Assembly (NCBI GenBank): GCA_963666285.1
Contig: OY762711.1
Direction: 5' to 3' (one strand)
Length of the DNA stretch: 64,000 nucleotides
Source: Sedimentisphaerales bacterium
GTDB lineage: Bacteria; Planctomycetota; Phycisphaerae; Sedimentisphaerales; SM23-30
Positions 4,001 to 55,683 of this stretch are shown in pieces. Both the position numbers and the translations under genes were made by a program. Each line of letters begins with the position of its first letter. Position 1 is the first letter of the stretch. A model generated the notes under the pieces. It had not been told where the DNA came from. It saw only the letters and a program-made list of their open reading frames with translations, and made no database searches.

Positions 4001-4390
4001 GATACCGTATATTATACTTTATATTGGCAAGAACTACAACCTAATGAGTGAAGAACGAAGAGTTATGTATGCCTGGCATGTCGCACGCGGGTTAATGTGT
4101 TCGCTTTCTCTCATAGCTGGTTTTAATCGGCTAACGCCGAGGAAAATGCTTTACCACCGATGGACACCGATTTTATTACTGAGGAGGCGGCTTTCCGAGG
4201 TATATTATTTATTGCTCACCGGGGGAGGCTGGAAACGCAGGGTTAGTTCAAAACTCAAGAATATAAAAGAGCTAAACGAAAATTCACGAAAGAACACGAA
4301 AAAATTGTTTGGGGCTGGGTTGGTTGTGTGGTAGAATTGGGAATTGAGAAGATCACTTTTTAAAGTATCAAGTGTAAATTCAAAGTGTAA

Positions 4391-4645
4391 AAGTGCGGTT
4401 TCGCACATTTGACTGTTCAACATTACACGCAAAGGCCAGAACAGGGCCTTGTGAATGAAAAACTCTATATTTAAATGTATTTCCGAGCTATTTCTCGAAA
4501 GTATATTTAATTCAAAGCGTTGCAAAAAGGCCCTTTTAGGCGATTTTTGCACCTTAAAAACTGCGAAAGTAAACTAAAAAGATAGTGTACTAATCTACAC
4601 AGGGAACTTATTTTTAATCGCCTGCGGCGGAAAATGCTTAACCAC
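4391..4645 (+). repeat. Dispersed structured repeat family A, copy 1
   Basis: TTGACTGTTCAACATTACACGCAAAGGCC...GGCCTTGTGAATGAAAAAC...AAAACTGCGAAAGTAAAC; near-identical segments at 22417, 41983, 54259, 61029. Confidence 0.9.
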
Positions 4646-4768
4646 AGATGACGCGAATCCGCCTGAGGCGGATTTCATTCAGCTCGGCGTTGGCAGTAAT
4701 TAAGAATCGCTTCAAGGTTCGCTAAAGCTAGGCTCGACAAAGAAAGCACATGATTAATATTTTTTTGA

Positions 4769-4825
4769 ACCGCGGATGAACGCGGATGAACACCGATGAA
4801 GAAAAGAGTAAGGTGTAAAATCAAA
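4769..4825 (+). repeat. 57-bp direct repeat (left of ankyrin gene) with 9-10-nt tandem units
   Basis: ACCGCGGATGAACGCGGATGAACACCGATGAAGAAAAGAGTAAGGTGTAAAATCAAA; copy at 7281-7337 with one mismatch. Confidence 0.9.
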
Positions 4826-4904
4826 TGAGTAAACAATGTGTTACTGCACCGTACGGTACAGGACCTTGTTTTAAAGCTGACGCGGGAGTGAAGTTTAATA
4901 GAAA

Positions 4905-6848
4905 TTATTTCAAATAACTTTCAATCAAATCAGCAATATCATCGTTTCCGTTTTCCCGGGCATAATCAATCAGTATTTTTGATCCGTTATTTTCAGAATA
5001 GACAAAATCAGGAATTGCGCCAGAATCAAGGATGAACTTAACTATTTCAATGTTTTTTATATGGATTGCCGCCCTGATAATATACCTTTTAGAATAATCT
5101 ATTGGCGGGAGCTGAATTCGAACAGCATTTGGATCTTTGTCATGTATATCATCATATTTAGTGAGATATTCCTCATAAGGTCTTGGCGCAAAATTGATAT
5201 CAGCTCCATAAGTCAGCAACAACTTCAGAAGATCAAAGTTGTCATTCATTACCGCATAAAATAACGGATAATCAGCGTTGATATTTTTAATATTCACCTC
5301 TGCGCCAGCAGCCAGAAGGGTTTTGGCAACTTCAAAATGATTATTTTTACATGCCAGCAGTAAAGCAGAATCACCAGTAGAATTCCGAGGAATATCGTCA
5401 GAGATTTCAGTTTGATCTTCGTACGATATATCTGAAGTAATATACGCAAAATCGAAAATATTTTCATTAAGATCGACTCTTGAATTTATATCAACACCCT
5501 TGGAAATCAGATGCTCAACGATTGCAAGGTCGCCTGCCTGGGCAGCATTAAATAACTCATAAACCAAATAGTCCATGCCTGGTTTTTGACGGGATGAACG
5601 GCTAGCGGGTGCAACCTCATTTATAAATTCCGGCTGGTCTAATTGTTCCTGTTCTGCATTTTCATTGTCGGTCTCTGAATTATCAGCCGGAGTAAACTGG
5701 TTATCCTTATAATACTTCTCTCTATATTGTTTTGAATATTCAAGCAGTTCAAGAACCTCGGCAGGAGGGTTTTCTTTTGCATAGACCAGCAGTTCAAGAA
5801 TCATACTGTCAACATCATATTTCCGGGCAATATCAATTGGAGTTTCATCCTTATTGTTTTCTGTAAATGGTCTGACACCACAATCTAATAAATATTCAAC
5901 TACCTCTATATTGTTTTGTTTAACAGCCCGATGCAAGGCAGAATTGCCGTAGTTATTAACTTCTGATAGCGAATAGCCATTTTCATAAAGCAATTTAAGA
6001 CATTCAAGATTGCCGTTAGCCGCTGCTGTTACAACCGGCGAAAAGGAACTGCCATAAGGATTTGAACAATAAACAGGAATAGACTTAAGAAGTAATGCCA
6101 GAATTTCCGCATTACCATTTTGAGATGCAAGCTGAATCGATAGTGGATGATTTCGTTGAAATTTTCCCATAGGACAACTTTCGACTTTTGCTCCCTTGGC
6201 TAATAGCAGCTTAACAAAATCTACATTATTCAGATAAACGGCGTAACAAAGTGATACATCAAATTCAGGAATTCCACTGATCATCCAATAATGTATTTTT
6301 TCAGGTTCATGATTATTGATATGAGAATTCCAGAATGCACTGCTCGCATAACCACTATATAAATCAAAGGCAAGCTTTTCGACTTTATCATTATACTCAT
6401 TAGAACTTGTTTTTTGATCGCCCAATGAAATGTAAAACATTTTCGACTTCAACCGCATAGCCAGCTGAAGGTCAAAGTCATTAAATAGAGTGAGGTTATT
6501 ACTGACTTGAAATTTTGGTTTTTTCCAGGCGTTTCCGTTTAATTCCTGAACTAACACAGACTGAGACTGAGTATGGTCATATTGCTCATAAATGTATGAT
6601 TTTGAACTGATCCCAAAACAGAGATAACCAGTAACAAAATCATTTCCTGCCGTTGACTTATTCAGTTCGTATGAACTGTAATTATTACTTTTGAAAGATC
6701 TATTTACGGAATCAAGTAACCCTTTCGAGATGACTACTTTTCTGCCAATATTCTCGAATAACATGTCAGGTTCAGTAATCTCAACAATATCATTAGCAGA
6801 GACAACACCCACAAGAAATAACATAACTACCAGTAATATTTTATTCAT
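4905..6848 (-). CDS. Secreted ankyrin-repeat protein
   Basis: Signal peptide; multiple ankyrin repeats (GNSALHRAVKQNNIEVVEYLLDCG, GDSALLLACKNNHFEVAKTLLAAGAEVN); AT-rich. Confidence 0.9.
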   Translation of the reverse strand: MNKILLVVMLFLVGVVSANDIVEITEPDMLFENIGRKVVISKGLLDSVNRSFKSNNYSSYELNKSTAGNDFVTGYLCFGISSKSYIYEQYDHTQSQSVLVQELNGNAWKKPKFQVSNNLTLFNDFDLQLAMRLKSKMFYISLGDQKTSSNEYNDKVEKLAFDLYSGYASSAFWNSHINNHEPEKIHYWMISGIPEFDVSLCYAVYLNNVDFVKLLLAKGAKVESCPMGKFQRNHPLSIQLASQNGNAEILALLLKSIPVYCSNPYGSSFSPVVTAAANGNLECLKLLYENGYSLSEVNNYGNSALHRAVKQNNIEVVEYLLDCGVRPFTENNKDETPIDIARKYDVDSMILELLVYAKENPPAEVLELLEYSKQYREKYYKDNQFTPADNSETDNENAEQEQLDQPEFINEVAPASRSSRQKPGMDYLVYELFNAAQAGDLAIVEHLISKGVDINSRVDLNENIFDFAYITSDISYEDQTEISDDIPRNSTGDSALLLACKNNHFEVAKTLLAAGAEVNIKNINADYPLFYAVMNDNFDLLKLLLTYGADINFAPRPYEEYLTKYDDIHDKDPNAVRIQLPPIDYSKRYIIRAAIHIKNIEIVKFILDSGAIPDFVYSENNGSKILIDYARENGNDDIADLIESYLK

Positions 6849-7280
6849 AAATGAATCCTCATTAATAAGTGTAAGGGTACAATTATTATTATCACATGAA
6901 GATTAAATATTACAAGAATATTATTATGCATTTGGGGACATTCTGATATATAAGATTGAGGTGGTCGGTGCGTTGCGGTTATTATAATCACGCGGGAGGC
7001 AGAAAATGCTCTACTATGATTTACACCGATAAGAAAATGTTTATAAATTAACCCACCCTACATGTCATGGGCAGCTCTGATAGTCTAATGCGATGTCGGG
7101 TTGGTTGAAAAGTTTCGGGCAGCGATGAGAATAATTTTTGCTCGCAGAGTCCGCAGAGATCGCAAAGGAAATTAACTGACTATGAAGAGAGTGAAGAAAG
7201 TTTAAAGTTTAAAATATAAAGTGTAAAGAAAGTATCGCTGACGCGACCTATTTTAAATCGCCTGCGGCGGAAAATGCTTT

Positions 7281-7337
7281 ACCGCGGATGAACGCTGATG
7301 AACACCGATGAAGAAAAGAGTAAGGTGTAAAATCAAA
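7281..7337 (+). repeat. 57-bp direct repeat (right of ankyrin gene)
   Basis: Matches 4769-4825; preceded by AATCGCCTGCGGCGGAAAATGCTT, also found at about 4616-4639. Confidence 0.9.
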
Positions 7338-7690
7338 ATTGTAGAGAAGGTGTCGCAGCACGGGCAACAAAAATTTCAATTCAATTCCAAGTTGTTATGG
7401 CAAGTCATTAATCATATAACTTCAATTCAGCAAACAGTTTTCGTGTATTTCTCCATAAAACGAAATATCAGTTACGGGAAGTTTTATTCTTCTAACGATC
7501 AGCTATCTGAGCAGCAGTAACCTGCGATATAATAATCAAAAGATATAACGCATTAAGAATAAGGTGTTTATGCCGTATTTAGAATATGTGTTTTTATTCG
7601 GGCAGTTTTGGCACACCTATTGTTATTTATTATGCCAAGAGAAAATTGAATAATACCCGCCAACAATTATATGTATAGAGAGAATATATG

Positions 7691-7752
7691 CTGCCGCCCT
7701 GGATTTATACCCCCCCGTCTGCTTTAAGCTTTGTAATCATCCAGGGCGGTAG
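7691..7752 (+). promoter_or_regulatory. 14-bp stem hairpin with a C7 tract in the loop, in the 5' region of the GLUG gene
   Basis: CTGCCGCCCTGGAT / ATCCAGGGCGGTAG (one G-U pair on + strand); no U-tract. Confidence 0.45.
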
Positions 7753-7830
7753 AGTGAGCAACCTAAGTAAGGTGCCAGGTAAGGAATGCCGCAGAGCGGC
7801 AACTAATTTTAATTTTTAAAAGGATTTAAG

Positions 7831-9855
7831 ATGAAGAAAGAATGGTTGAAATGTGTTGTATTGGTATTTATAGCTGTATTATTTGACTCATTATACGGCG
7901 GCACGTATTCCGGCGGTACAGGCATCGCGGCTGACCCGTTTCATATCAGCAAGCCTGAAGACTGGAGTGAGCTATGCCAGAGCGTGCAGGACTGGTCGGC
8001 GTGTTTTGTAATGGATAATAGTATAGATCTGGGTGAAATTGCCGGGCTTATGCCGGTGGGTAATAGCGAAGATCATTTTGACGGCCAGTTAACCGGTTTC
8101 GGATATGAAATTACAAACATTTCAATCGAAATGCCCGAAACTGATAATGTGGGACTGTTCGGCTGGGTCGGAGCAGAGTCTAACATAACGGGGATAAAGG
8201 TTTATAGCGGAGCGGTCAGCGGCAACAGGAATGTCGGCGGAATAGCCGGTATATGCTTTGGCACAATATCAAACTGCATTTCAGACTGTACAATAACGGC
8301 AGCGGACGATAACGCGGGCGGGATAGCGGGCAAGACCTCGGAAGGAGTAGTCATTTATTGCAGTTCCAGCGGAACCGTAACCGGCGATTACTATGTCGGC
8401 GGCCTGGTTGGCTACTGCTATGATGAGAGCATAGTTGAATGCTGCAAGTCAGATTCAGAGGTAAGCGGAAACTATTATGCGGGCGGCCTAATCGGATATA
8501 CATATTTCGGTTCGGAAATAGAGAAGTCATTTTCTAGCGGAAGAGTAGAAGGCAGCTATTATATCGGCGGGCTGGTTGGCGAGCATTATTCAGCGAGTAA
8601 GATAAGAGATTGCTACTCTATCTCACCGGTGACCGGCGATCAATTTGTCGGCGGGCTGGTCGGCAGGAGCAATAACGGTCATATATACAGCAGCTATTCA
8701 TCCGGCCATGTAGAAGCAACCTACAGTACGGTCGCGGGCGGTCTGACAGGCGGTAAGATAAACGGCAGTATTAATGATTCGTTCTGCAATAGCGAGACCT
8801 GCGGGATAAGAGACAGTTACGGTGGGATGAACCGGACCACATCGCAGATGAGCGATATTAATACATTTGTAAATTACGGATGGCAATTTGTCGAGCTGGC
8901 TAAGGATCCGGTATGGTTTATGCCGGTAGAAGGCAGCCCGCGTTTATATGCGATGCGTCATATAGATTATGCCGGACCGTCAGCATCAGTTATCCGTCAG
9001 AGTGAAATGGCAACGACCAGCTTTATATTGAATGCGAAGTCAGACGAACCGGTCAGCTGGGAGCTGGCCACAGGCCAGGGTAGCCCGTGGCTTGAGCTGC
9101 TGAGTGTGTCGTCGGGCACATTTGAGAATATAACAGACCAGGCAACAATCGAAATATCAATAACAGCGCCAATATTGCCGGGCGAATATGATGGTATAGT
9201 TATTGTTACTACTGACAATGGCGAAAGACATAATATACATATTCCATTTACAGTTTACAACCTGGTAGATATAGAGGAGTTTGGGATATTAGCACAATAC
9301 TGGGGGTGTGAAGACTGTGTCGGCGGTAGTCCGTGTGATGCCGCGGACTATTATGATGATGGCAAGATAGACACCCTGGATCTGATGCAATATGCCATGA
9401 GCTGGCTATCAACAGAGATTATCTATGGTGAAGACCGGATAACGGATAATTTTGAATCGGGCGATTTCAGTAAGCTTGGCTGGCAATTGAGCGGTGATGA
9501 GAACTGGACAATTGATGATGAAGTGTATTATGAAGGCAGTTACAGTATAAAATCCGGTGATATAGGTCATTCAGATGAGTCGGTAATAGCCCTTGAAACA
9601 GATACAGGCGAATACGATACAATCAGTTTTGCATGTATGATATCAAGTGAACTGGATTGGGACACTCTGTGTTTTTATATTGACGGCATAAAGAAAATGG
9701 AGATCTCGGGCGAAAACAGCTGGAAAAGCAAAACGTTTACCTTTACGCCCGGTGAGCATACGTTCAAATGGGAATACAGCAAAGACAGTTCCTGGTCTGC
9801 CGGGGATGACTGCTGCCGGCTTGACGATATAAAGATATTCAAGCAATCGAACTAG
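7831..9855 (+). CDS. Secreted GLUG-repeat surface protein with dockerin-like EF-hand motif and C-terminal beta-sandwich
   Basis: YSGGTGIAADPFHI start; repeated VGGLVG/AGGIAG GLUG motifs; DYYDDGKIDTLDL...WL; C-terminal HTFKWEYSKD. Confidence 0.8.
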   Translation: MKKEWLKCVVLVFIAVLFDSLYGGTYSGGTGIAADPFHISKPEDWSELCQSVQDWSACFVMDNSIDLGEIAGLMPVGNSEDHFDGQLTGFGYEITNISIEMPETDNVGLFGWVGAESNITGIKVYSGAVSGNRNVGGIAGICFGTISNCISDCTITAADDNAGGIAGKTSEGVVIYCSSSGTVTGDYYVGGLVGYCYDESIVECCKSDSEVSGNYYAGGLIGYTYFGSEIEKSFSSGRVEGSYYIGGLVGEHYSASKIRDCYSISPVTGDQFVGGLVGRSNNGHIYSSYSSGHVEATYSTVAGGLTGGKINGSINDSFCNSETCGIRDSYGGMNRTTSQMSDINTFVNYGWQFVELAKDPVWFMPVEGSPRLYAMRHIDYAGPSASVIRQSEMATTSFILNAKSDEPVSWELATGQGSPWLELLSVSSGTFENITDQATIEISITAPILPGEYDGIVIVTTDNGERHNIHIPFTVYNLVDIEEFGILAQYWGCEDCVGGSPCDAADYYDDGKIDTLDLMQYAMSWLSTEIIYGEDRITDNFESGDFSKLGWQLSGDENWTIDDEVYYEGSYSIKSGDIGHSDESVIALETDTGEYDTISFACMISSELDWDTLCFYIDGIKKMEISGENSWKSKTFTFTPGEHTFKWEYSKDSSWSAGDDCCRLDDIKIFKQSN

Positions 9856-9900
9856 CAGAATGTAATAATGCGAAGCTTGAGCTAAATGAGACCAGGTCAC

Positions 9901-10018
9901 AGTGCAGCTTAGGCTTCGCATCATATACATGACGTACTTTTGAGTGTTCGGTTATCCTTCGACTAGCTCAGGGCAGACCGACTCGCATTTTGGCTAAAAC
10001 ATAAGTGTTGCAGGAAGT
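9901..10018 (+). repeat. Diverged, partial family A copy with an embedded CTTCGACTAGCTCAGG REP-like unit
   Basis: AGTGCAGCTTAGGCTTCGCATCATATACATGACGTACTTTTGA resembles 22418-22460; TAAAACATAAGTGTTGCAGGAAG resembles 54383-54405. Confidence 0.7.
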
Positions 10019-10029
10019 CACTTTGAGTA

Positions 10030-10824
10030 TTATTTCAGTTCGGCTTTTATCTCGGCGACTTTGGCGGCGAGCAGATCGGCAACATCAGGTGAGTCGAGAT
10101 TATCTTCGATAACCTTTTCGAAGGCGCTGCCGATGACTATGCCGTCGGCGACGTCGCGCAGGTCGCGGGCATCGTCAGCAGTAGAGATACCAAAGCCGAG
10201 AGCGATCGGGGTATCGGTTTGCTTGCGGACACGGGCGACATTGGATTTGATAGCGTCGGCATCAAGCCCGCCGACGCCGGTAACGCCGGTGCGGGTGATC
10301 ATATAGATGAAGCCGCCCGCGGTTTTGGCAATATTTGGCAGGCGTCCATCATCGGTAGTCGGCGCGATAAGATGGATAAGCGGGAAGTCGGCCTCGATAA
10401 GAGTTGTGAACTCGGCGGACTCTTCCGGCGGCAGATCGACGATAAGGGCACCGTCGGCCCCGGCAGCGATAGCGTCTTTGCCGAACTGTTCGATGCCGTA
10501 GCTGAAAATCGGGTTATAATAGCTAAATAGAATGATGGGGACCTCGACACCGGCGGCGCGAAGGTCTTTGACCAGCTGGATAACCTTTTTCAGGTTCATG
10601 CCGTTGGCGATTGAACGGCCTGCGGCTCGCTGGATGACCGGGCCATCACTGGTAGGGTCAGAGAACGGCACACCCAGCTCAAGTATGTCGATGCCCGCCC
10701 GGCAGGCTTTGACGATGATCTCTTTTGATGTTTCTATATTCGGGTCGCCGGCGGTAATATAACCGACAAGTGCTTTGGCACCGGCGTCTTTAAGTTCGTT
10801 AAATTTCTGAGTTATTCGATTCAT
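10030..10824 (-). CDS. trpA: Tryptophan synthase alpha subunit
   Basis: YITAGDP, LELGVPFSDPTSDGPVIQ, GFGIS, DGIVIGSA. Confidence 0.98.
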   Translation of the reverse strand: MNRITQKFNELKDAGAKALVGYITAGDPNIETSKEIIVKACRAGIDILELGVPFSDPTSDGPVIQRAAGRSIANGMNLKKVIQLVKDLRAAGVEVPIILFSYYNPIFSYGIEQFGKDAIAAGADGALIVDLPPEESAEFTTLIEADFPLIHLIAPTTDDGRLPNIAKTAGGFIYMITRTGVTGVGGLDADAIKSNVARVRKQTDTPIALGFGISTADDARDLRDVADGIVIGSAFEKVIEDNLDSPDVADLLAAKVAEIKAELK

Positions 10825-10926
10825 TTTTATAATCTCTACTTTATATAGTTATTTTATATAACAGGCATAAGGGATACGGGATAAGGCATAAGGAGAGGAA
10901 TCGCCTGCGGTGAAGCGGTCCAGAAC

Positions 10927-12135
10927 CTATTTCATGCCCAGTACTCCCAATACATGTTCGAGGTCTTTGTCGCCGCGACCGGAAAGGTTGACAACAATGA
11001 CTTTGTCCTTGCCGTATTTCGGCGCGGTACGTATAACTTCTGCGATAGCATGTGAGCTTTCGAGGGCGGGGATGATCCCTTCGAGCTTACATAGCAGCTT
11101 GAAGGCGTCGAGTGCCTCGGTATCGGTAACGGACGAATATCTGGCGCGACCGAAATCCTTGAACGCGGCGTGTTCGGGACCGACGCCGGGATAGTCCAGC
11201 CCAGCCGAAATTGAATATGCTTCCTGAATCTGGCCGTTGTCATCCTGTAGGACGTAGCTTTTGGTACCGTGCAGCACGCCGACCCGGCCATGGCCGAGGG
11301 TTGCGGCATGTTCGGGGGTATCAACGCCCTTGCCGGCCGCTTCGACACCCATGATTTCGACCGATTCATCAGCCAGGAACGGATAGAACATTCCCATCGC
11401 GTTACTACCGCCGCCGACACAGGCGATCAGCAGGTCGGGCAGCCGCCCTTCCTGGGTGAGTATCTGCTCGCGAGTCTCGTCGCCGATAACCCGCTGGAAG
11501 TCGCGGACCAGTGCCGGGTACGGATGCGGCCCGGCAACCGTGCCGATCACATAGAAAGTATCTTCGACGGCCCCGGCCCAATATCGGATCGCAGCGTTCA
11601 TCGCGTCTTTGAGAGTTGCGGTACCATCATTGATCGGCACAACCTCTGCGCCGACAAGTTTCATACGCTGCACGTTGGGCTGCTGACGTCTGACATCTTC
11701 GGCCCCCATAAAGACCTTGCATTCCATGTCCATGAGAGCTGCGGTGATAGCGGTAGCTACGCCATGCTGGCCGGCACCGGTTTCGGCGATAACCTTGCGT
11801 TTGCCCATGCGTTGTGCGAGCAGCACCTGTCCGATAGTATTGTTGATCTTGTGGGCGCCGGTATGGTTAAGGTCTTCCCGTTTGAGGTATATCTTTGCAC
11901 CGCCGAGCGCATCTGTCAGTCGTTTGGCAAAGTATAAAGGAGAAGGCCTGCCGACATATTGCTTGAGCAGGTATTTATATTCGGCGATAAAGTCATCGTC
12001 GGCCATGTATTTCTTCCAGGCGAGTTCCAGTTCGTTAACCGCCGGAATAAGAGTTTCACCGACATATTTTCCACCGTATGGCCCGAAATGCCCCTTTTCA
12101 TCGGGCATCGTCATTAGTTGTTCTATTTTTGACAT
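10927..12135 (-). CDS. trpB: Tryptophan synthase beta subunit
   Basis: [16 protein letters not shown] (PLP Lys), [31 protein letters not shown]. Confidence 0.99.
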
Positions 12136-12223
12136 ATATCTTCCTCATTGATTTTCATCATACTCTAATTGCACCGGGAGCGAGACCAAAGTGTGACGAA
12201 CTGTGGCAGCTTAGATATATTTC

Positions 12224-12271
12224 TCCCACGAGTTGAAACCCTTGGCTACAACTTATCGTCCCTACGGGACT
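12224..12271 (+). repeat. REP-like palindromic unit between trpF and trpB
   Basis: CCCACGAGTTGAAACCCTTGGCTA...GTCCCTACGGGAC, resembling REP sequences associated with IS200-like (RAYT) transposases. Confidence 0.6.
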
Positions 12272-12312
12272 TATTTTGTGTTTCGGCTTCGCCTAAACTA
12301 TTTATATTTCTA

Positions 12313-12972
12313 TTAGAAGCAGTCTTCGATTCGTCGTGTGTATTCGACCGCCCTGGCATTTTCGATGAAAGCTTTGACCTTTTCGATATCTTTTATGCCT
12401 GGCTCTTTTTCCACGCCGCTGCTGACATCAACCGCATCTGGATATGCCTGCTGAATCGCATCAGCAACATTGTCCGGGTCGAGTCCGCCGGCAAGCACGA
12501 AAGGACAAACACCGGCCAGTTCTTTGGCAATCTCCCAGTTCCAGCTGATGCCGTTACCGCCTGGCAGCCTACCTTTTTTGCCTTCTACCAGCACAGCGGA
12601 ATTGAACCGGGCCGCTTCACGAACAATATCTATAACATTTATATCGATATATTTAATAACATCAACACCGAACTGGTCCCTGACATTATTGAGTATCTCA
12701 TATGACTCGCTGCCATGAAGCTGGACAGTGTCAACTTTGCAATGCTTGATAATCTCGCCGATCTCAAGAACCGGCATATTAACAACCACCGCTACCTTTG
12801 CAACATGGTCCGGGACCGCCTGGCAGACCCTCTGGGCCTGCTTGATAGTAAGGTTCCGCGGACTCTTACTGTAGAATACCAGCCCAATCGCATCAGCTCC
12901 TGCCTTAACAATATCTTCTGCCTGTTTTGCATTTGTAATACCACATACTTTCACCTGCACTTTATTTGCCAT
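12313..12972 (-). CDS. trpF: Phosphoribosylanthranilate isomerase
   Basis: VKVCGIT, GLVFYSKSPR, VQLHGSE, LAGGLDPDNV, VDVSSGVE. Confidence 0.97.
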   Translation of the reverse strand: MANKVQVKVCGITNAKQAEDIVKAGADAIGLVFYSKSPRNLTIKQAQRVCQAVPDHVAKVAVVVNMPVLEIGEIIKHCKVDTVQLHGSESYEILNNVRDQFGVDVIKYIDINVIDIVREAARFNSAVLVEGKKGRLPGGNGISWNWEIAKELAGVCPFVLAGGLDPDNVADAIQQAYPDAVDVSSGVEKEPGIKDIEKVKAFIENARAVEYTRRIEDCF

Positions 12973-38575: not shown

Positions 38576-38579
38576 ATTA

Positions 38580-46754: not shown

Positions 46755-46820
46755 GAAGAAAGGAGCGAGAAGAGAGGAGTTCTGGTGGTGTCGTTGCGCG
46801 ACCTTAGTTTAAAGCCGGCG
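46755..46820 (+). repeat. 66-bp direct repeat (right of second ankyrin gene)
   Basis: Matches 45600-45665. Confidence 0.93.
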
Positions 46821-47035
46821 TGGAAGTAAGTTTTCGAGAGATTGTTAAAATAGAGCGAGAAGATAGGGAATTATGAAAAGTTGTAAGCAGCCGTATCATT
46901 AAAGAATCTAAAATTCTTGACCGGTGGATGATGTTTCTGTTAGAATTGCTAATAGCCGGTGCCTGGAGACGGGTATCATATATGGATCAAATACGGATGA
47001 GCAAAATAATGGCGAATCAGGAACAGGATATTAAT

Positions 47036-47917
47036 ATGAAAATAATCGATAGCGTGAAATTGGCGGCGGTATTATTGGCGATGATTTTTCTGGCGGGCGA
47101 GGTGTATGCCGAGGAATCTAATGGTAAGCCGGAGAATGAGCATGCGGTAGTGAAGCTGTGGCCGGGTGAGGTGCCGGGAAAGGTGACCGAGAATGGCGAG
47201 CATGCGATGCCGGACCGGGGTGATGGTGTGACGCGGTTGACGGATGTGAGCTGTCCGACGATGACGCTGTATCTGCTGGATAAGAAGTCGCCGGCGGTGC
47301 TGGTGTGTCCGGGCGGCGGGTATAGTATCCTGGCGATTAATAAGGAAGGGTACGAGATAGCGGAATGGCTGAACTCGGTCGGGTTTAATGCGATAGTATT
47401 GAAGTATCGCGTGCCGGGGAATCGGGCAGGTGCGTTTCAGGATGTTCAGCGTGCGATGGGGCTGATACGGCAGAACGCGGAGCAGTGGAAAATAGACGCC
47501 GAGAAGGTCGGGGTGATGGGTTTCTCGGCGGGCGGTCATCTGTCGGCTAGGTTGAGTACAAATTATGCGGTGCGGAGCTATGAGCCTGTCGATAAGGCAG
47601 ACGAGCTGAGCTGCAGGCCGGACTTTACGATATTGGTGTATCCGGCGTATCTGTCGAAAGAGAATTATGGGCTGGCTGATGAGATAAAGGTTGATGATCA
47701 TACGCCGCCTGCGTTTTTGATACAGGCTCAGAATGACAGATCTTATGTTGACAGCAGTATCGCGTATTACCTGGCGTTGAAAGAGGCCGGGGTGCATGGC
47801 GAGCTGCATCTGTTTCCGAGCGGCGGGCATGGATTCGGGCTGCGCGGGCCGAACCCGACGGCAGTTGCGTGGCCGAAACTATGCGAAGCATGGCTAAATA
47901 AAATAAGTGAAGAGTGA
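47036..47917 (+). CDS. Secreted alpha/beta hydrolase (acetyl esterase/xylan esterase-like)
   Basis: CPGGGY, GFSAGGHL, RPDF, GGHGFG. Confidence 0.9.
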   Translation: MKIIDSVKLAAVLLAMIFLAGEVYAEESNGKPENEHAVVKLWPGEVPGKVTENGEHAMPDRGDGVTRLTDVSCPTMTLYLLDKKSPAVLVCPGGGYSILAINKEGYEIAEWLNSVGFNAIVLKYRVPGNRAGAFQDVQRAMGLIRQNAEQWKIDAEKVGVMGFSAGGHLSARLSTNYAVRSYEPVDKADELSCRPDFTILVYPAYLSKENYGLADEIKVDDHTPPAFLIQAQNDRSYVDSSIAYYLALKEAGVHGELHLFPSGGHGFGLRGPNPTAVAWPKLCEAWLNKISEE

Positions 47918-48189
47918 AGAATTAAGAGTGAAGAGTTGCGGTGTCCCGATGTGCATCGGGACCTTGTTTTAAATGGCTGACGCCGAATGTGCCGTCTGGT
48001 TACTCTTGCGGAGAGGAATTGAAATTGGAAATATTAATGACCGTTCATTCTGAACGGGACGGGCGGTAACAGAAAGTGTTGTCGCCGTGGAGCGACAAGT
48101 GAAATGAAAAACTAATGAAATATAGACATGACCTGACAACACCCAATCCGACATATAAAGCTATTATATCAGCACAAAGGAAATCAAAA

Positions 48190-49575
48190 TTGAAAAAGAC
48201 ATTTATTATAATAATTCTTTGTACAACTTTCTTTACAACTCTCTCATGTAAAAATGAAAATTCCAGCATAAATATTCCTATCGAAGAAACAGCTAAAAAT
48301 GACATTGAAATAAATAATGAAAATAGCAACTCACAAATACATAATTATTACTCAAAAGGTTTAGAATTTTCGGAGAAAGGTGCCTATAAAGAAGCTTTAC
48401 AATATTTCTTAAAATCTGCAGAATTGGGTCATACAGAATCTCAATTTTATCTTGGAGCATATTATTTCGGTGGTCTCGGCGTATCAGAAGATTGCAAAGA
48501 GGCCATTAAATGGTTCACATCAGCTGCAAGTAAAGATCATGTAAAAGCCCAGTTTTTTCTTGGCCTTTGTTATTATGAAGGGCCAGATGAATATAGGAAT
48601 TATAACGAAGCATTTAAATGGTTTAGCCGAGCAGCAGAGAATAATCATGCTGAAGCTCAAAACTATCTAGGAGCCTGCTATGAACTAGGTAGAGGCTCAT
48701 TGCAGAATTATGAAAAAGCATTCAAATGGTATACAAAATCTGCAGAGCAAGGTCGTGGTGATGCTCAATACAATCTTGGCTTGTGTTATGATCAAGAACG
48801 CGGCACAATTCGTGACTATAGCGAAGCAGTAAAATGGTATACTAAATCAGCAGAACAGGGTTACGCAAAAGCCCGTCTGAACCTAGGAGTATACTATTTT
48901 GAAGGTCGGGGCGTAAAACAGGACCTAACCAAAGCTGTTAAGTTATTTGAACAATCCGCCGAGCAAGGTATTGCAAACGCACAATGCTACCTAGGATATT
49001 GTTATGCTAATGGTATCAGTGTATCTCAAAACGATCAAATAGCGGTACAATGGTATCTTAAATCTTCAATGCAAGATTATCCGCCTGCCCAACATAATCT
49101 TGGCAATTGTTATTATAAAGGTCTTGGAGTTAAACAAGATTATAACGAAGCAGTGAAGTGGTACACGAAAGCCGCTGAGCATAATTTTGTAGAGGCTCAA
49201 TTCAACCTTGGCATTTGTTACGGACAGGGCCAAGGCGTACAACTTGACTATAAAGAAGCCTTTAAATGGTATTTCAAAGCAGCCCAACAGGGGTATACTG
49301 ACGCTCAATACAATCTAGGAAATTATTATGCAAAAGGTAATGGAGTACAACAGAGCGACAATGAAGCAGTGAAGTGGTATACTAAAGCTGCTGAGCAAGG
49401 TCATGCCGGAGCACAATATAATCTAGGCATATTTTATACTGAAGGATACGGAGTGCCACAAAACTATATTGAAGCTGCCAAATGGTTTGAAAAAGCCGCT
49501 CAACAAGGTGATATAGATGCCCAAGAGATGCTAAAAAAGATAGCCTCTAAAAATGCTTACACAGAAGAATTTTAG
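48190..49575 (+). CDS. Sel1-like repeat lipoprotein
   Basis: About eleven SLR units (AQYNLG..Y..G.GV.QDY.EA.KWY.KAAEQG); TTG start at 48190 gives a signal peptide ending in lipobox TLSC. Confidence 0.92.
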   Translation: MKKTFIIIILCTTFFTTLSCKNENSSINIPIEETAKNDIEINNENSNSQIHNYYSKGLEFSEKGAYKEALQYFLKSAELGHTESQFYLGAYYFGGLGVSEDCKEAIKWFTSAASKDHVKAQFFLGLCYYEGPDEYRNYNEAFKWFSRAAENNHAEAQNYLGACYELGRGSLQNYEKAFKWYTKSAEQGRGDAQYNLGLCYDQERGTIRDYSEAVKWYTKSAEQGYAKARLNLGVYYFEGRGVKQDLTKAVKLFEQSAEQGIANAQCYLGYCYANGISVSQNDQIAVQWYLKSSMQDYPPAQHNLGNCYYKGLGVKQDYNEAVKWYTKAAEHNFVEAQFNLGICYGQGQGVQLDYKEAFKWYFKAAQQGYTDAQYNLGNYYAKGNGVQQSDNEAVKWYTKAAEQGHAGAQYNLGIFYTEGYGVPQNYIEAAKWFEKAAQQGDIDAQEMLKKIASKNAYTEEF

Positions 49576-49680
49576 CGATTAATAGTTTTATTAACTTTCC
49601 TAAACTGACCAATGCTCGGTTTGAAATGTTTTATCGCAAAAAAAGTGTAAAATCGTTCACTATGAAAATATTATATACTA

Positions 49681-50856
49681 TCATGGTAACGGGGTGTTGG
49701 GTTTAACGGCGTTGGCGGGGTATGGGTTGTCGGGCCCGAAGACGAGCATCGCGGCACGATCTTCGACAGTAACAAACGATTCGTCGATAGTGCCGTTAGC
49801 GTTTTGGACAGCGGCGAGGTCCAGGTTGAGATACCGTGCGAGGAATGGATAGGCGGCCATGCGTTTGGATATGCCATAGTCGTGTTTTTCGTCGGGGAAA
49901 TGGGCGTTTTGGACTTTATCGGCAGCTTTATATAATTGATAAACGCTTTTGACGTAAGGGTATTCTACCTGAGGGGTGTTTTTGGTCCAGTCGGAACCGT
50001 TGGAGATGAGCAGCTGCGGGCGCGGCGCGGCGAGAGCTGCGATCTCTGCGTTGTTGGTTTTGTGGAACGTGTTCTGGTGGATGGGCATGCCGCTTTCGCA
50101 GGAGCAGCCGCCGAAGAAATGAGCGGAGACCTGGCAGACCGGGACACTAACAGCGATGCGGTCGTCGATAGCGGTGAGGATGAATGTCTGGGTACTGCCG
50201 CCGGAACAGCCGGTCATGCCGATACGGTCGGGGTCTATATCTGGCAATGACAGTATATAGTCGAGAGCTCGGATACTGTTCCAAGTTTGGAGTCTGAGTA
50301 CTTCAGGTACCTCATTGTGCGACCAGCCAGCCTCTTTCCAATCGCCGTAGCCGACCATATCATAAAGGAAGACAGCGGCGCCCATGCGGGCGAGAACGGC
50401 GCAGCGTTTCTGTCTATTGGGATGAAAACGGCCGCCGTGGCCATGCGGGCATAGTATGCCGGCGAGTGATGGATATTGTTTGGTTGGCAGATAGAGTGAG
50501 CCGGTGACGTAGAAGCCGGGCGAGCTCTGGAAAACGACACTCTGGACAGAGTAGCCGTCGTAGATACGCTTGTTATAATACTGAGGTTTGAGAGGAGTCT
50601 TTTTGGGAGGGTCCGCCAGGCGTGCGCCTTGGATGATGCCGGAGCGGATGGCAGCTTTTCGTTCTTTCCAGCCGGCGAGGTCTGAATATGATGCTTTGAA
50701 CTGCAGCAGCTCGGCGGCAGCTTCTTCGGGGGTCTGGGCCTGGCCCTGCCGGAGAGCAGGCACATATAAAGCTGCTTTATCGGGCGGAGTAGTTTTTTGC
50801 TGCTGACAGCCGGAGAGGAGAATGAATGAAACCGCAATTAAAATATAAGCTCTCAT
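49681..50856 (-). CDS. Lipoprotein alpha/beta hydrolase (acetylxylan esterase-like)
   Basis: LSGC lipobox; [26 protein letters not shown]. Confidence 0.85.
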
Positions 50857-50946
50857 AGAATCACCTTTCTTTTGATCGATAATATGCTAAAGGATGAACT
50901 TAAACAGCATAATCACAATCGTTGCGACATGCCAGAAAATTACAGG

Positions 50947-52560
50947 CTACTTTTCATCTATTGGATAGCCATGATAGAGGTACATTGCGCCGTAGGTCCA
51001 GTTTGGCCCCTGCATACCGGGGAAGTTTAGCCGGTCCATCATGAGAGCGATATAGGGAGCGGGGTATCCATCGGGCAGAGGAACGACGTTGGGCCAGATG
51101 CGGGTACCGGTTTTGTCGTCCCAGGGCGGCAGGTGCATATTGAGCGAGCCGACCGGATCGAGGTTTGGGTAGGAATAGATATGAACTTTGCGGTCAGCGC
51201 TGCCGAAGAGTGCATATCTTTTTTCGCCGATGGTCTGGAGCTGGGTGCCGGTACTGTCAACAGAAACAGGTCCTGCGATGAGTTTGTATGGTCCGTCCCA
51301 TTGGTCAGATTCGCGGATAACAGCCTTGTACCCTTTATGATTTTCGCAGAGGAGCATGCGCCATTTGCCAGCTTCGGTATCGTATATACATTGGGGATCT
51401 TCGTAGTCGCCGATGAGGCCGGTGGGTTTGGCGGACATAATTGACAAGCCGATAAGAGGAGACTTTGAACTTGTAACGGCCCAGAGCTCTTTCTTTTCTT
51501 TGCGGGTATGGTCGGCGAAAGCGGAGAAGCCGGTAGTGAAGCCCTGCCACTGGTTTTCGGTTCGGTTGTAGAATAAGTTTGACGCGATATCGTTACGGAG
51601 CAGGCCGTCGCCACGGTCGAAGACAATGATACCTTCGAATTTGATATCGAATACGGACGGGTCGAGACTGAAGACGCCCTGCAGATGATGGGGCAGAGCA
51701 CGGCCGCGGAGACTGGCGGTGTACCAGAGCCGATTATCTTTGAAATATGGAGTGCCATCCTCATATGTTATGAAACGGAGGTCGGCCTGGCCGAGCCCGG
51801 GCGAGAGAGATGAGGATGCAGATGATATATCTATAGATGAATTTTCGCTGAGCGAGTTATAGAGCAGAAAGTCGTAACGCTGCATGAGTTTTTTCTGGCG
51901 GAGGTCCAGATGGCGAACGAAGTCAACCTGGCCGATGAGTGTTATCCTATCGTTGTTTTCGATGAGGATGTTGGCACCGCCAGCGAAGACCTGAACGAAG
52001 AGTGATACATGCATGCCGGCTGGGATAGCGGTCGGCAAGTTGAATTCTTTGCGGTCAGCTTGTTTGTTATCTTTTGTAAGGGAATATGTAACTGATTTAT
52101 ATTTGTTGTCGGCAGCGTTGAGGGTGACAGTGATATTGTCTGATGTTGCGGTGTCCTGGAAGATTAGTCCGGTATGGGCCGAGCCCGAAAGGTTGTTGAT
52201 ATTTACCACATAGGCGGCAAAAGGGCTGAAGGAGCCGACCCACCTGATAGAGACTGAAGGCTGGGCAGATGAAATATGAAGCCGACCCTTTGAGATTGAT
52301 AGTTCCGGCGAACCTGACTGAGTGCCGACCGGCGGGTGCATGACATCGAGTCCGACGATGCGGGATGGGTTCAGTTCGGAGAGCGGGATATTTTGGGCCT
52401 GATCAAGAATTATTCGTTTGACTGCCTGGCGGCGGAACTGCAGCCGGTCGGGTGAAAGCCGGTCAGCACATTCTGCGTAAGATAAAAAGAATAGTATAAG
52501 AATAAGAGTAAGCGGCAGATTAGAAAATATTGTCTTTATCTTTCCTTTTTTTACAGGCAT
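50947..52560 (-). CDS. Secreted hypothetical protein with a probable five-bladed beta-propeller (glycoside hydrolase-like) C-terminus
   Basis: QADLRFITYEDG, GDYEDP, WDGPY motifs; family not assignable. Confidence 0.55.
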   Translation of the reverse strand: MPVKKGKIKTIFSNLPLTLILILFFLSYAECADRLSPDRLQFRRQAVKRIILDQAQNIPLSELNPSRIVGLDVMHPPVGTQSGSPELSISKGRLHISSAQPSVSIRWVGSFSPFAAYVVNINNLSGSAHTGLIFQDTATSDNITVTLNAADNKYKSVTYSLTKDNKQADRKEFNLPTAIPAGMHVSLFVQVFAGGANILIENNDRITLIGQVDFVRHLDLRQKKLMQRYDFLLYNSLSENSSIDISSASSSLSPGLGQADLRFITYEDGTPYFKDNRLWYTASLRGRALPHHLQGVFSLDPSVFDIKFEGIIVFDRGDGLLRNDIASNLFYNRTENQWQGFTTGFSAFADHTRKEKKELWAVTSSKSPLIGLSIMSAKPTGLIGDYEDPQCIYDTEAGKWRMLLCENHKGYKAVIRESDQWDGPYKLIAGPVSVDSTGTQLQTIGEKRYALFGSADRKVHIYSYPNLDPVGSLNMHLPPWDDKTGTRIWPNVVPLPDGYPAPYIALMMDRLNFPGMQGPNWTYGAMYLYHGYPIDEK

Positions 52561-52833
52561 AATAATTTGTCCTTTATTTTCAATACGAATTGCAAGTTTA
52601 TACACATTGGGTAAGCAATGATACTTTTTATGCCACGCTCAAACGGGCATTATCAACAGTTATGGGTATATAATTGAGAGACATTTATGATTTTAAGGAC
52701 AGGAGATGATATGTAAAGACAAAAAAAACAGAATTGCAGCCAGAATGTGCATGGACCAAACGCTGTGAAACAAGCTCTTATAGAGATTATTTGAAATTGA
52801 AAAAATAACGACCGATTATTCTGAACCGTTATA

Positions 52834-53139
52834 TTATGATTCACATTCTTCAGTTTTATCTTTTTTATAGATCAGCATCAAGTTGCGAACATAAACAATA
52901 TTATTAAAAAGATGGCCCAGAATAAAAATCGGATCTTTTCTACCGGCAGAATAAATCAGCAGGCCGGTACTGCCAATAACACTAAGATACCAAAATGAAA
53001 CAGGTACAATACTTTTTTTATGCTTTTCGGAAACCAGCCATTGAACCAAGAATCTAGCAAAGAAACAGGTTTGTGCAAATGCCCCCAAAACAATCCATCC
53101 GTCAAGTTTAGCTACTAACTCGTTGAAATACTGTTCCAT
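52834..53139 (-). CDS. Lipid A biosynthesis N-terminal domain (LAB_N) membrane protein
   Basis: QTCFFARFLVQWLVSE...SIVPVSFWYLS...KDPIFILG...YVRNL; true start MEQYF at 53139. Confidence 0.9.
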   Translation of the reverse strand: MEQYFNELVAKLDGWIVLGAFAQTCFFARFLVQWLVSEKHKKSIVPVSFWYLSVIGSTGLLIYSAGRKDPIFILGHLFNNIVYVRNLMLIYKKDKTEECES

Positions 53140-53143
53140 ATAA

Positions 53144-53887
53144 TTAATCTCGCTCAATTTCTCTGGTTTGGTAGATGAAGTTTCGCGATTGCATCCATCG
53201 TATAGCGAAGCAATCGACGAACGCCTTGAAGATCCTGTTCCAAACGCCGTACTTGGCGACACCGGCGGTGCGAGGCCGATGGTTGACAGGAATTTCCTTA
53301 ACTTTATAACCCTGCATTTTAATGAGGGTCGGCAGGAACCGGTGCATGCCGGTGAAAAGCTTGATATTAGCGACACATTCTCGCTTATAGACTTTCAGTC
53401 CGCAAGCGGAATCGTGTATCGACTCGTTAGTAAGCCAGTTTCTGACCCCGTTGGCAATTTTGGTAGATGCAAGCCTAATCCAAGGATCGTTGCGTTCCTT
53501 GCGCCAGCCGTTGACCATATCACATTCGCCGTCGAGGATGAGTTTCAGCATTCGGGGCAGCTCGGCCGGGTCGTTCTGGAGGTCAGCGTCGAGCATGCCA
53601 ATGTGCTCGCCTCGAGAATTGCGGATAGCCGCATCAACCGCGGCGGTCTGTCCGGTACGTTTGCTAAGAGAGATAACCCTGAGTTGAGGGTATTCTGCCA
53701 TGAGCTGCTTGAGTACAGATTCGGTATTGTCCTGACTACAGTCATTGGCGATAACAATTTCCCACTTGCCGGTCAAATCGGTCATGGCAGCAGATATCTG
53801 TTCGACAAGAGGCCGGACGTTGTCCTCTTCGTTAAAAGCCGGAGCTACTACAGATAGTAGTATGTCATTTTTATTATTGTCGGTCAT
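53144..53887 (-). CDS. GT2 polyprenyl-phosphate glycosyltransferase (ArnC/DPM1-like)
   Basis: VVAPAFNEE, NDCSQD, LDADLQNDP, DSACGLK, MHRFLP, VNHRPR. Confidence 0.92.
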   Translation of the reverse strand: MTDNNKNDILLSVVAPAFNEEDNVRPLVEQISAAMTDLTGKWEIVIANDCSQDNTESVLKQLMAEYPQLRVISLSKRTGQTAAVDAAIRNSRGEHIGMLDADLQNDPAELPRMLKLILDGECDMVNGWRKERNDPWIRLASTKIANGVRNWLTNESIHDSACGLKVYKRECVANIKLFTGMHRFLPTLIKMQGYKVKEIPVNHRPRTAGVAKYGVWNRIFKAFVDCFAIRWMQSRNFIYQTREIERD

Positions 53888-54258
53888 TTATTACTATGCA
53901 AACCTTACTATTTTATTAACAGGAACTTACAAAATAGTAAAAACTATAATACTATTTGAATTGCGGAGAAATCATAGCTTATAACAAACTATATTATGAT
54001 TTGATAAAATGCCGCAAAAAGCAGTTCCTGTTATGGTACATCTGTTCAAATGTCATGTTCAATCCAGACCTTGTTATTGTAGGTCGAATACTAAACATAA
54101 TACAGATCCATTATTTTAATAATACCGATTATTTTAGCAAATTAAAATTGAATAAAATACCAGCATGTATTCAGGGTATATGCAGTTAATGGCCGATAAA
54201 CGAATAAAGTTAAGTTACGGTACCGCAAAAAGCGGATATATTAGAAAGCTGACACGAT

Positions 54259-54450
54259 AAGTGCGGTATCGCACTTTTGACTGTTCAACATTACACGCAA
54301 AGGCCAGAACAGAGCCAATTAAGTGAAAAATGAATAATGAAGTGAAAAATTAAGGTATTCGACTATCGTCTCACGTTTTGTTTAAAACATAAGCGTTGCA
54401 GGAAGGCCCTTTTAGGCGAGTTTTGCAACTTAAAAACTGCGAAAGTAAAC
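54259..54450 (+). repeat. Repeat family A, copy 4, with its centre replaced by a heptamer module
   Basis: 5' part matches 4391-4447 and 3' part matches about 4515-4574; the middle is AAGTGAAAAATGAATAATGAAGTGAAAAATT... Confidence 0.85.
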
Positions 54451-54552
54451 GATAATAGTCGCTATAAAAATGCTCTGTGTTATTGATAGCAGTGAGAATG
54501 CGGAAAAACATACGTAACAAGTTTTAATAAAACGACTTATAGCTAAAAGAAT

Positions 54553-55548
54553 TTGAAAAGAATAAAAATAAAACTGAAAAAATCCAGTATAGTACTTATG
54601 CTGCTGGCAGTACTGACTGCGGCGATGGTAGTACCAGTTTGGGGAGAGTGCCGATATCTACGGGCGATAGACGACCCGCTGGGCCAGGCTCGGAGCAGAG
54701 TATATGAAGTATACGGCGAATACACGGTACGCGGAGCGAAAATCCATATGCCTAGCGTACGAAAGATTTTGAATACCGGTATCAAGCAAATAGCGTGTAT
54801 GGATGATTCGGCTGAGGCCTGGAAGAGTTACCTGCACGAGGAAGATATAATCGCGATAAAATTTTGCGAGGTAGGCGGCCGCCAGCTGGCGACAAACAAG
54901 GAATTTTGCTCTATCCTGCTGCAGATCCTGTATAAAATCGGCTTCAAGCCGGAACAGTTTATGATAATCGGGCTCTATGACCTGCCGGAAGAAGCGGCGG
55001 GGACGATCCCGTGGGAATATGGCTGGCAGGAAGAAAAAGTTGATTTCGGCAGCGATTATGACTACCTGGCAAGCTGGCTGGATAAGGTAACGGCAATAAT
55101 CCATGTGCCATCAGCGATGGATGACAATATAACAGGAATCCGAGGAGCCATAGCGGATATGGCCTGGTCGGTGGTGAAACATCCGGGTAAATACTACGCT
55201 TCTAACGGTGACCCTTTTGTGGCCGAGATATATAATCTGCCGCAGGTACGCGGTAAAATACGTCTGACAATCGTAAATAACCTGCGGTCACTGTTTTACG
55301 GCGGCCCAAATGTTAAGCAGATATTTGTAAGTGAAAACGGCAGTATGCTGTTTAGCAATGACCCGGTCGCACTTGACAGGATAACCATGGAGCTGCTGGC
55401 GAAGCAGCGAGAAGAGAATGACCTGCCGAGCGGAACCAAGCTGTTTCTATCGGCCCCCCACCTGATAACAGCCGAGGCTTTAGGTATTGGCTATCAAGAC
55501 CTGAATATGATACAATATCAATATGTGAAGCATGATAAAAATGAATAA
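54553..55548 (+). CDS. DUF362-family protein with N-terminal signal/TM
   Basis: IIAIK, TAIIHVP, LFYGGP, FSNDPVALD, AEALGIG; appears degenerate. Confidence 0.7.
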   Translation: MKRIKIKLKKSSIVLMLLAVLTAAMVVPVWGECRYLRAIDDPLGQARSRVYEVYGEYTVRGAKIHMPSVRKILNTGIKQIACMDDSAEAWKSYLHEEDIIAIKFCEVGGRQLATNKEFCSILLQILYKIGFKPEQFMIIGLYDLPEEAAGTIPWEYGWQEEKVDFGSDYDYLASWLDKVTAIIHVPSAMDDNITGIRGAIADMAWSVVKHPGKYYASNGDPFVAEIYNLPQVRGKIRLTIVNNLRSLFYGGPNVKQIFVSENGSMLFSNDPVALDRITMELLAKQREENDLPSGTKLFLSAPHLITAEALGIGYQDLNMIQYQYVKHDKNE

Positions 55549-55683
55549 GACGAAATATATTTATCCTATTCATTTTTATAGTAAGAAGATAGAAGCGAGA
55601 AGTTAGAAGATTTTGCTATTGCCAATCTCGCACAAAATAACATTTTGCAATATATACAACCAGATATAAGCAGAAAATAATAA

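Follow-up and report, generated by a model that had tools for sequence, protein, structure and literature searches.

Polar purine-skew domains that start at GCGG-rich tracts and orient one-armed heptamer modules in a Sedimentisphaerales chromosome

In this study, we analysed a 64,000-nt stretch of DNA, here called the window, which corresponds to C1:4,768,001-4,832,000 in the 6.35-Mb genome of a Sedimentisphaerales bacterium (G000; 97% complete) and in which intergenic spacers, including those between trp genes, carry short modules of purine-rich heptamer repeats, a hairpin and a T-tract (Table 1). Each module is one arm of a heptamer inverted-repeat element that flanks four-helix-bundle genes, and the spacers of this genome hold a single arm each. 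We demonstrate that the modules are oriented in blocks, independently of replication and of gene direction, and that the blocks coincide with long polar domains of purine skew that start at GCGG-rich tracts, to which we attribute the co-orientation. The domain system appears to be new; the modules themselves are a variant of a known four-helix-bundle element. Counts per spacer depend on gene calls made with our own codon model (4448 genes), and the sister genomes used for comparison, G001 and G003, are the other complete genomes of the same genus.

The initial annotation of the window described about a dozen such sites, and the hairpins that it quoted are present, all on the + strand. Full module architecture is found at 4844, 7235, 13806, 43774, 45634, 46789 and 47943; the modules at 15541 and 54223 exist but are weaker than the full copies, and the site at 55584 consists of heptamer repeats only, as described. 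The hairpin at 4393 had been misassigned, as it heads a different repeat family of about 128 copies and is followed by no T-tract. We found further copies at 4091, 4601, 7320, 10868 and 54323, and all 13 profile matches in the window lie on +, in agreement with the one-way pointing first noted. That second family is itself oriented and non-coding, with window copies at 4391-4580, 22455-22640, 41985-42110, 54280-54450 and 61030-61100, all on +, and has no polarity of its own.

Table 1. Modules, arms, tract and skew domain in the window (window coordinates unless prefixed C1)
Feature	Position	Strand	Remark
Purine-skew domain, share of the window	1..64000	+	inside block C1:4,652,902-4,841,515 with 15 module loci
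GCGG/ACGG-rich 'starter' tract	2510..2720 (C1:4,770,627)	+	14 net motifs in 150 nt; one of 74 tracts
Degenerate arm	4060..4140	+	15.1 bits; absent from the initial annotation
Heptamer run and GTGCG hairpin, head of second oriented repeat family	4360..4580	+	
Module: heptamers, hairpin, T-tract, second mini-hairpin	4805..4885	+	
Tandem arms: 7201-7269 full, 7320-7356 partial	7180..7360	+	profile match
Weak arm in trpB-trpA spacer, pyrimidine side just before trpA start	10868..10932	+	7.9 bits
Module in trpD-trpC spacer	13765..13840	+	profile match; same spacer in G003 without module
Degenerate module in trpE-trpG spacer	15505..15570	+	8.4 bits; same spacer in G003 without module
Module with commonest hairpin family and second hairpin	43735..43835	+	profile match
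Module, near-duplicate of 46755-46825	45600..45670	+	profile match
Module	46755..46825	+	13.3 bits
Module	47905..47990	+	60 bits; folding z -3.7
Weak module (54223) and further arm 54323-54387	54200..54390	+	
Heptamer run without hairpin	55584..55612	+	

Genome-wide, a structure scan gave 98 matches, against 0 and 1 in two shuffles, and recovered none of the window copies. With a threshold of 14 bits, a profile built from 90 of these matches (8 were discarded by eye) found 371 module copies, against none when the genome was reversed; 368 of the 370 copies on C1 are intergenic. A perfect stem of at least 4 bp occupies the hairpin slot in 199 of 370 copies, compared with 26 after shuffling, which leaves 171 whose stem is imperfect or missing. 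The hairpins comprise 93 distinct sequences from few palindrome families, and the most frequent of them occurs in 32 copies. Thus the earlier claim that pairing is kept while sequence varies holds as to the variation, which is mostly a swap within a small library of palindromes rather than gradual compensatory change. Since the same families recur inside tRNA-Asn-like copies beside small GIY-YIG genes, the hairpins are exchangeable inserts; the family at 47905..47990 is found in this setting in both G001 and G003. Tandem small GIY-YIG genes lie downstream of tRNA-Asn at G003:C1:1.828-1.830 Mb and G001:C1:2.017-2.018 Mb, and also at G000:C1:2,936,076; the units of these arrays end in a tRNA-like copy in which the start of the anticodon stem is replaced by a module hairpin. 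A small GIY-YIG gene is also inserted within 23S rRNA genes of another relative (G025:C1:2,114,666 and 3,760,539). No curated Rfam family matches the modules, a check proposed at the outset: a search of the window returned only a group II intron end, and six module loci searched at E up to 0.5 returned none.

Total GC skew, gene strand bias and a pair of parS palindromes (5,741,897 and 5,742,070) agree on a single origin near 5.742 Mb and a terminus near 2.698 Mb, which places the window's module copies on the lagging strand. The orientation suspected to follow replication does not do so (147 leading versus 126 lagging loci, p=0.23). Modules are arranged in 57 blocks of common orientation, with 199 of 229 neighbouring loci within 50 kb co-oriented, against 119 +/- 7.5 (maximum 145) when orientations were permuted 5000 times within strata of flanking genes and replichore, and with all 62 multi-copy loci internally co-oriented. 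Transcription was rejected as the cause: the mRNA strand is favoured in co-directional spacers (125 versus 48), but blocks continue across 149 of 178 gene-strand switches, and the independence from flanking gene direction reported earlier is upheld. Alignments between module-bearing spacers keep orientation in 23,934 of 24,056 cases.

These results bear on the suggestion that the modules are a family of repetitive extragenic palindromes (REP or BIME) with replication-linked orientation. Short intergenic palindromes in hundreds of copies, arranged in mosaics and used as IS110 targets, do resemble such a family, yet the modules have no link to replichores, form no inverted pairs in G000 and come without a RAYT: the best NF047646 score is 56 bits against a cut-off of 80, no modules were seen in its flanks, and the other PF01797 matches in G000 are of IS200 type. 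As regards orientation this explanation is refuted. An assembly artefact is contradicted by the same domains in an independent genome, by the single origin on which parS, total skew and gene bias agree, and by short-read contigs, four pieces of which cover most of window 1-19877 with zero differences, although no contig spans all of it; we regard either explanation as very improbable.

What the modules follow is the composition of the surrounding DNA. At fourfold-degenerate sites of ordinary genes, the module strand is richer in G and A and poorer in C and T. In the window, the leading strand is -, and most genes lie on it, yet the fourfold A+G excess is on + in 14 of 16 4-kb bins (maximum +0.24). 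Genome-wide, the module term in GC skew is 0.21 within 10 kb, 0.08 at 10-25 kb and 0.05 beyond, compared with a replichore term of 0.075-0.15, which it exceeds near modules; in A/T the two have opposite sign, with A>T on the module strand and T>A on the leading strand. The domain skew is of A+G type, polar and 20-70 kb long, in zones of roughly 100 kb; it persists for 20-40 kb beyond the last module of a block and is gone within 5-10 kb ahead of the first, and the gain in G peaks within 1-2.5 kb of modules on both sides. When the chromosome is segmented by skew alone, 23 upward and 23 downward turns result, from which the orientation of modules is correctly predicted at 254 of 273 loci. The number of peaks is under that of shuffles at low prominence (23 versus 29) and above it at high prominence (16 versus 5.7); gene-to-gene autocorrelation, 0.67 and still 0.39 at lag 10, is better evidence for domains. 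Taken together, we consider the skew-domain pattern almost certainly real.

Other repeats obey the same polarity. Of the 286 cases decided in a heptamer scan that makes no use of the profile, 276 follow the local skew (33 besides were undecided), and 148 of 196 repeat tiles agree at 0.8 or above, those near 0.5 being mostly DDE-type insertion sequences (IS), of which the window's own agrees in one copy of five. A 21-copy repeat lies at window 19850-20020 (+) and 38590-38750 (-), the reversed copy in a region almost without skew. Uninterrupted heptamer runs of at least 10 units occur on the purine strand at G000:C1:4,067,689, 5,610,265 and 1,730,301. Group II introns lie on the purine strand in 8 of 11 cases; being gene-targeted, they are uninformative as strand reporters.

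That the bias is not intrinsic to the genes is shown by 221 orthologue pairs of G000 and G003: sorted by polarity in their own genome, purine share is 0.33-0.35 versus 0.48-0.52 in G000 and 0.28-0.29 versus 0.52-0.56 in G003, unaffected by the partner's polarity, with the domains themselves defined from skew. Since orthologues adopt each genome's own local polarity, the substitution bias is ongoing. In G003 all 10 module matches agree with local skew by eye. Autocorrelation at lag 5, sampled over 200-760 kb per relative, is 0.42-0.56 in three stretches of G000, 0.63 in G003, 0.22 in G001, 0.24 in G017, 0.04 in G047, -0.08 in G025 and -0.16 to 0.05 in three small contigs. Domains are thus strong where modules are one-armed, in G000 and G003, and weak in G001, where they are two-armed. 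The orthologue test also bears on the possibility that blocks are inverted segments that retain an old replication skew, with every module formerly on the leading strand. In its favour, gene order differs greatly from that of G003, with 124 breakpoints among 368 orthologues; however, gene strand bias tracks the present replichores equally in both block types (63% versus 63%; 62% versus 67%), the signature is purine rather than keto, the skew is polar from the tracts described below, and orthologues switch polarity between genomes. This explanation is already largely refuted and seems to us scarcely credible.

The domains start at intergenic tracts dense in GCGG and ACGG, 74 in all, of which 31 lie within a 32-copy repeat that we call the starter and 43 are unrelated. 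Skew is positive downstream of 69 of the 74 and upstream of 34 (Wilcoxon p=1.5e-12, the tracts not being fully independent), its values being +0.096 downstream and -0.009 upstream, with the downstream value the higher at 69 of 74 tracts; it sets in 2-4 kb before the tract centre, peaks at 3-20 kb, falls to half by 20-40 kb and fades over some 40 kb, and the effect is the same at 37 leading and 37 lagging tracts. Of the modules distant from tracts, 142 of 170 are fed by a tract of the same sense, and a decay model over 40 kb that uses tracts only correlates with skew at r=0.60 downstream versus 0.01 upstream (200 sign shuffles: standard deviation 0.05, maximum 0.42). When 5-mers are scanned without bias, CGG words come first for skew steps, although the correlation is weak (r 0.14-0.18).

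The starter, found through words enriched at upward skew turns, is about 1.1 kb long and non-coding (stops and frame-breaking gaps led us to reject a coding sequence); its 5' end is fixed, and its 3' part varies and contains modules. Upstream of the starter the skew amounts to 0.00-0.015 and downstream to 0.08-0.095, compared with 0.04-0.08 upstream of 230 other loci. Its 5' part was not found in the 60 relatives searched, 18 of which match the module part alone. At the 5' end, the pyrimidine strand carries a boxA-like word that is directed away from the skewed side and resembles a leader word at C1:6,033,476; four unrelated boxA-like sites had no consistent skew. Skew jumps coincide with parS, tRNA or palindromes only at the real origin. 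Five pairs of tracts stand back to back, and we rejected a cognate enzyme between them, as the 42 proteins scanned are ordinary genes; IS110 and IS3 copies lie just downstream of tracts as passengers. One IS110-family element has nine copies at a fixed site just behind starter modules (G000:C1:4,653,138), a candidate bridge-RNA target.

Upward jumps of this kind raise the question of whether the tracts are auxiliary one-way origins, at which a G-rich RNA would form an R-loop, as at ColE1 or oriK, and prime a low-fidelity fork for tens of kb, with GNA hairpins priming the opposite strand. The fixed 5' end and very G-rich body of the starter, whose stem variants are all G-T compatible on the G-rich strand, the origin-like upward jumps at the five back-to-back pairs, the saw-tooth skew profile of G003 and one starter 3.5 kb from parS all speak for it. 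Against it, neither gene orientation nor skew of the replication type follows the tracts, read-through from the upstream gene matters little (0.101 versus 0.088), RNase H is present, the one starter copy scanned has no conserved promoter, and mutation bias would yield G-T stem variants equally. We therefore consider such origins unlikely, though they deserve more weight than the other alternatives. The likeness to replication asymmetry in general lies in sharp upward jumps, gradual decay and strand-specific substitution, a jump-and-decay pattern also found in eukaryotic skew N-domains; the difference is that some 23 jumps occur on a chromosome with one parS-marked origin, leave gene orientation unaffected and are of A+G type, whereas the replication signature of this genome is G+T.

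Tract-predicted polarity shifts codon use in ordinary genes: AAG makes up 0.435 versus 0.279 of Lys codons and TTC 0.253 versus 0.443 of Phe codons, with no shift for Gln. Selection on polarity, or biased gene conversion, in which a directional DNA motor or a recombination bias favours purine-rich words on one strand, could account for GAG-containing words being the most domain-biased 6-mers and for the increase of G near modules. Yet the shift affects almost every synonymous class, whether genes lie in sense or antisense, and comes with little change in amino acids, and the decay is smooth with distance; we consider this account quite improbable.

With regard to the arms themselves, the initial annotation had offered, as one possibility, orphan ends of repeat-flanked four-helix-bundle insertions, and this proved correct because G001 keeps both arms while the spacers of G000 and G003 hold one. 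Complete modules immediately precede the PF05635/TIGR02436 genes at C1:5096210 and C1:8296, most of the other seven of nine four-helix-bundle genes over cut-off in G000 have heptamer runs, and in many relatives and other phyla such genes are flanked by inverted heptamer arms, as read by eye. In G001 the whole module (heptamers, GGT, hairpin, T-tract and second mini-hairpin) forms the left arm of an inverted pair; of the 11 spacers that bear arrays in 400 kb, 7 have two arms, always with the purine arm first. In contrast, all 266 spacers in G000 and all 50 in 760 kb of G003 are one-armed, a count in which one back-to-back case, C1:2,347,190, is divided by a short called open reading frame (ORF). 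The window's trp spacers carry right arms before start codons; the corresponding spacers in G003 carry none. Modules thus share with heptamer-armed four-helix-bundle elements the 7-mer arms and the sites after stops or before starts, and differ in G000 in that the single arm matches domain polarity and bears a swappable palindrome and T-tract, and in that the gene flanks are direct repeats. The module profile found no such arm in 80 loci from other phyla. We rejected the T-tract as a relic of the lost arm, as its complementarity is not above shuffles (3.06 versus 3.09). GxxExxY genes, also named earlier, were not found in G000; they occur in 25 of 31 genomes tallied, several with similar 10-mer flanks. 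At G000:C1:45,310-46,250, a four-helix-bundle gene lies in 2.3 tandem copies of 419 bp.

The hairpins have a strand of their own. Perfect module stems carry GNA or GNNA loops, which make very stable DNA hairpins (PMC5009754), in 79 of 199 cases on the pyrimidine strand and in none on the purine strand; among all intergenic mini-hairpins the counts are 203 versus 21, and in a genic control 54 versus 52. The modules therefore match the GC-GNA-GC or GC-GNNA-GC mini-hairpin described there on one strand only, and the proposal of a single-stranded-DNA feature gains support, although a folding program does not distinguish the two strands. Such loops would suit a nickase of the element that reads and nicks GNA hairpins and starts strand-displacement synthesis at every module, so that the element would bring about its own spread; a small GIY-YIG nuclease could play this part, or a protein that works with the four-helix-bundle product. 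The one-strand bias, the module hairpins flanking tandem GIY-YIG genes in tRNA-like copies, the strongest gain in G within 1-2.5 kb on either side of modules and the nine four-helix-bundle genes are all consistent with it. However, modules distant from tracts are barely polar (0.068 upstream, 0.085 downstream; 99 of 170), whereas tracts are strongly so; G001 has modules, four-helix-bundle genes and GIY-YIG genes, yet two-armed elements and weak domains; and no nuclease recurs beside tracts. Such a nickase is improbable, somewhat more so than auxiliary origins.

Polar strand-specific re-synthesis of some kind probably underlies the domains. We lean, by a little, towards a chromosome with some 74 randomly oriented start sites for replication-independent, one-way re-synthesis, whether recombination hot-spot arrays or auxiliary origins, that rewrites one strand over tens of kb and sets downstream codon usage and the orientation of nearly all non-coding repeats and of IS110 and IS3. 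As to mechanism, a conceivable reading, to which we give somewhat less than even weight, is that the domains are the scar of error-prone repair synthesis primed at a Chi-like tract, the surviving arm being the one that matches the purine strand of the domain. AddAB arriving from a break on the 3' side would halt at the array and leave the G-rich strand as a 3' tail, which would invade a homologue and be extended 5'->3' inaccurately and with long exposure as a single strand. The outcome would be C>T, A>G and pyrimidine-to-purine changes that become fewer with distance. In the course of the same events the other arm of an inverted pair would be lost or left uncopied, and repeats would spread in a single orientation as synthesis switched template from one tract copy to another.

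We prefer this repair synthesis since the GCGG core matches known AddAB Chi words, AddA and AddB are encoded, and onset and range match; since two-ended breaks would be blind to replichores; and since ectopic invasion among tract copies would explain both oriented mosaics and shuffled synteny. On the module strand, the direction of change appears to be A>G, C>T, T>A/G and C>A/G. Such changes fit either an uncorrected polymerase that misinserts on the new strand or damage to a strand that stays single for long. Changes private to individual repeat copies, per 10,000, include C>T 47 versus G>A 19, T>G 10 versus A>C 3 and A>G 33 versus T>C 25. The Chi word of B. subtilis AddAB is AGCGG (PMC4824097), and that of Caulobacter is GCGGTGGT, an array of 15 of which slowed degradation within 2-5 kb (PMC5443536), a distance that we liken to the 2-4 kb onset upstream of tracts. 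Like these words, the G000 tracts are polar, G-rich and built on GCGG in a genome that encodes AddAB, with an effect that starts a few kb from the array and extends for tens of kb. Known Chi sites, however, are scattered and skewed by replichore, whereas the tracts are dense intergenic arrays in random orientation, whose recognition by AddAB would be by analogy, and the available parts of the two sources describe no long-term compositional scar. As the trigger, Chi and AddAB are a tentative assignment with rather less than even odds. The addA and addB genes lie far apart in all three complete genomes of the genus (G000:C1:845,330 and 2,627,549) and are adjacent in most other relatives listed.

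Several observations weigh against repair synthesis at Chi-like arrays. A simple model of protection from degradation predicts skew on the opposite side, so that a fit requires mutagenic early repair synthesis. GCGG words have no leading-strand excess over Markov expectation (log2 -0.09 to +0.03 for nine CGG 5-mers), unlike classical Chi, and the strength of a tract does not scale with how many motifs of any kind it has (|r| at most 0.18). The strand bias of the tracts entered into their own definition, and one tract is not independent of its neighbours. Private C>G changes (4.6) fall below G>C (12.3), so that five of six classes fit, from small counts confounded by element orientation, and the spectrum among starter copies is not clearly asymmetric. 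MutS, RNase H, DinB, AddAB and Pol I with its exonuclease motif occur in domain-positive and domain-negative genomes alike, and no gene difference therefore explains the trait. Retention of GNA loops by the pyrimidine strand and their removal from the purine strand would give the same pattern, which does not fix the strand that becomes single. G003 has strong domains yet no clear 32-copy starter or dense tract in 760 kb. One further result speaks for repair synthesis: genes on either side of a spacer are still neighbours in G001 or G003 for 3 of 28 spacers with a module or tract, compared with 137 of 436 plain ones (p=0.019), but this test is small and modules favour lineage-specific regions.

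Avd of diversity-generating retroelements is a relative of the four-helix-bundle proteins. These retroelements also place a stem-loop beside G/C-rich DNA (PMC12875486), but G000 lacks adenine-specific mutagenesis (changes per site among 31 starter copies: A 0.85, T 0.73, G 1.08, C 1.04), its domains extend for tens of kb, and the reverse transcriptase (RT) matches examined are of group II intron type. An integron attC array was rejected on the grounds that flanking genes, including those of the trp spacers, lie in both orientations; no search for an integrase was made. In the open-licence literature we found no account of the module element or of such skew domains, and the available parts of 10.1101/2021.01.26.428298 and PMC5524665 bear on neither.

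Strand asymmetry in bacteria is usually attributed to replication or transcription; here a third and stronger asymmetry has mapped starts, a direction and a decay length, and position alone shifts the synonymous codon use of ordinary genes nearly twofold. Origin calling from skew and inference from codon bias can mislead in such lineages. If the reading of dedicated start sites is true, a hidden second map of polarity overlies the replichores. The 150-nt tract is a testable cis element for a long-range directional mutational process, and one genus provides a natural experiment, G000 and G003 with strong domains and single arms against G001 with weak domains and two. The work also supplies a rule for the decay of the unexplained heptamer elements of four-helix-bundle genes.

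Further features were observed in passing. At window 41690-41985 (-) lies a group II intron 3' end (RF00029), 99% like RT-bearing copies and inside an oriented repeat; a DDE_5 IS with five near-identical copies adjoins it at 40344-41627 (-). Abutting ORFs occur at 44436-45476/43993-44406 and 53144-53887/52834-53139, one pair of which is possibly a split gene. Elsewhere in the genome, G000:C1:6,069,500-6,069,900 holds a regularly spaced direct repeat that resembles a CRISPR array.

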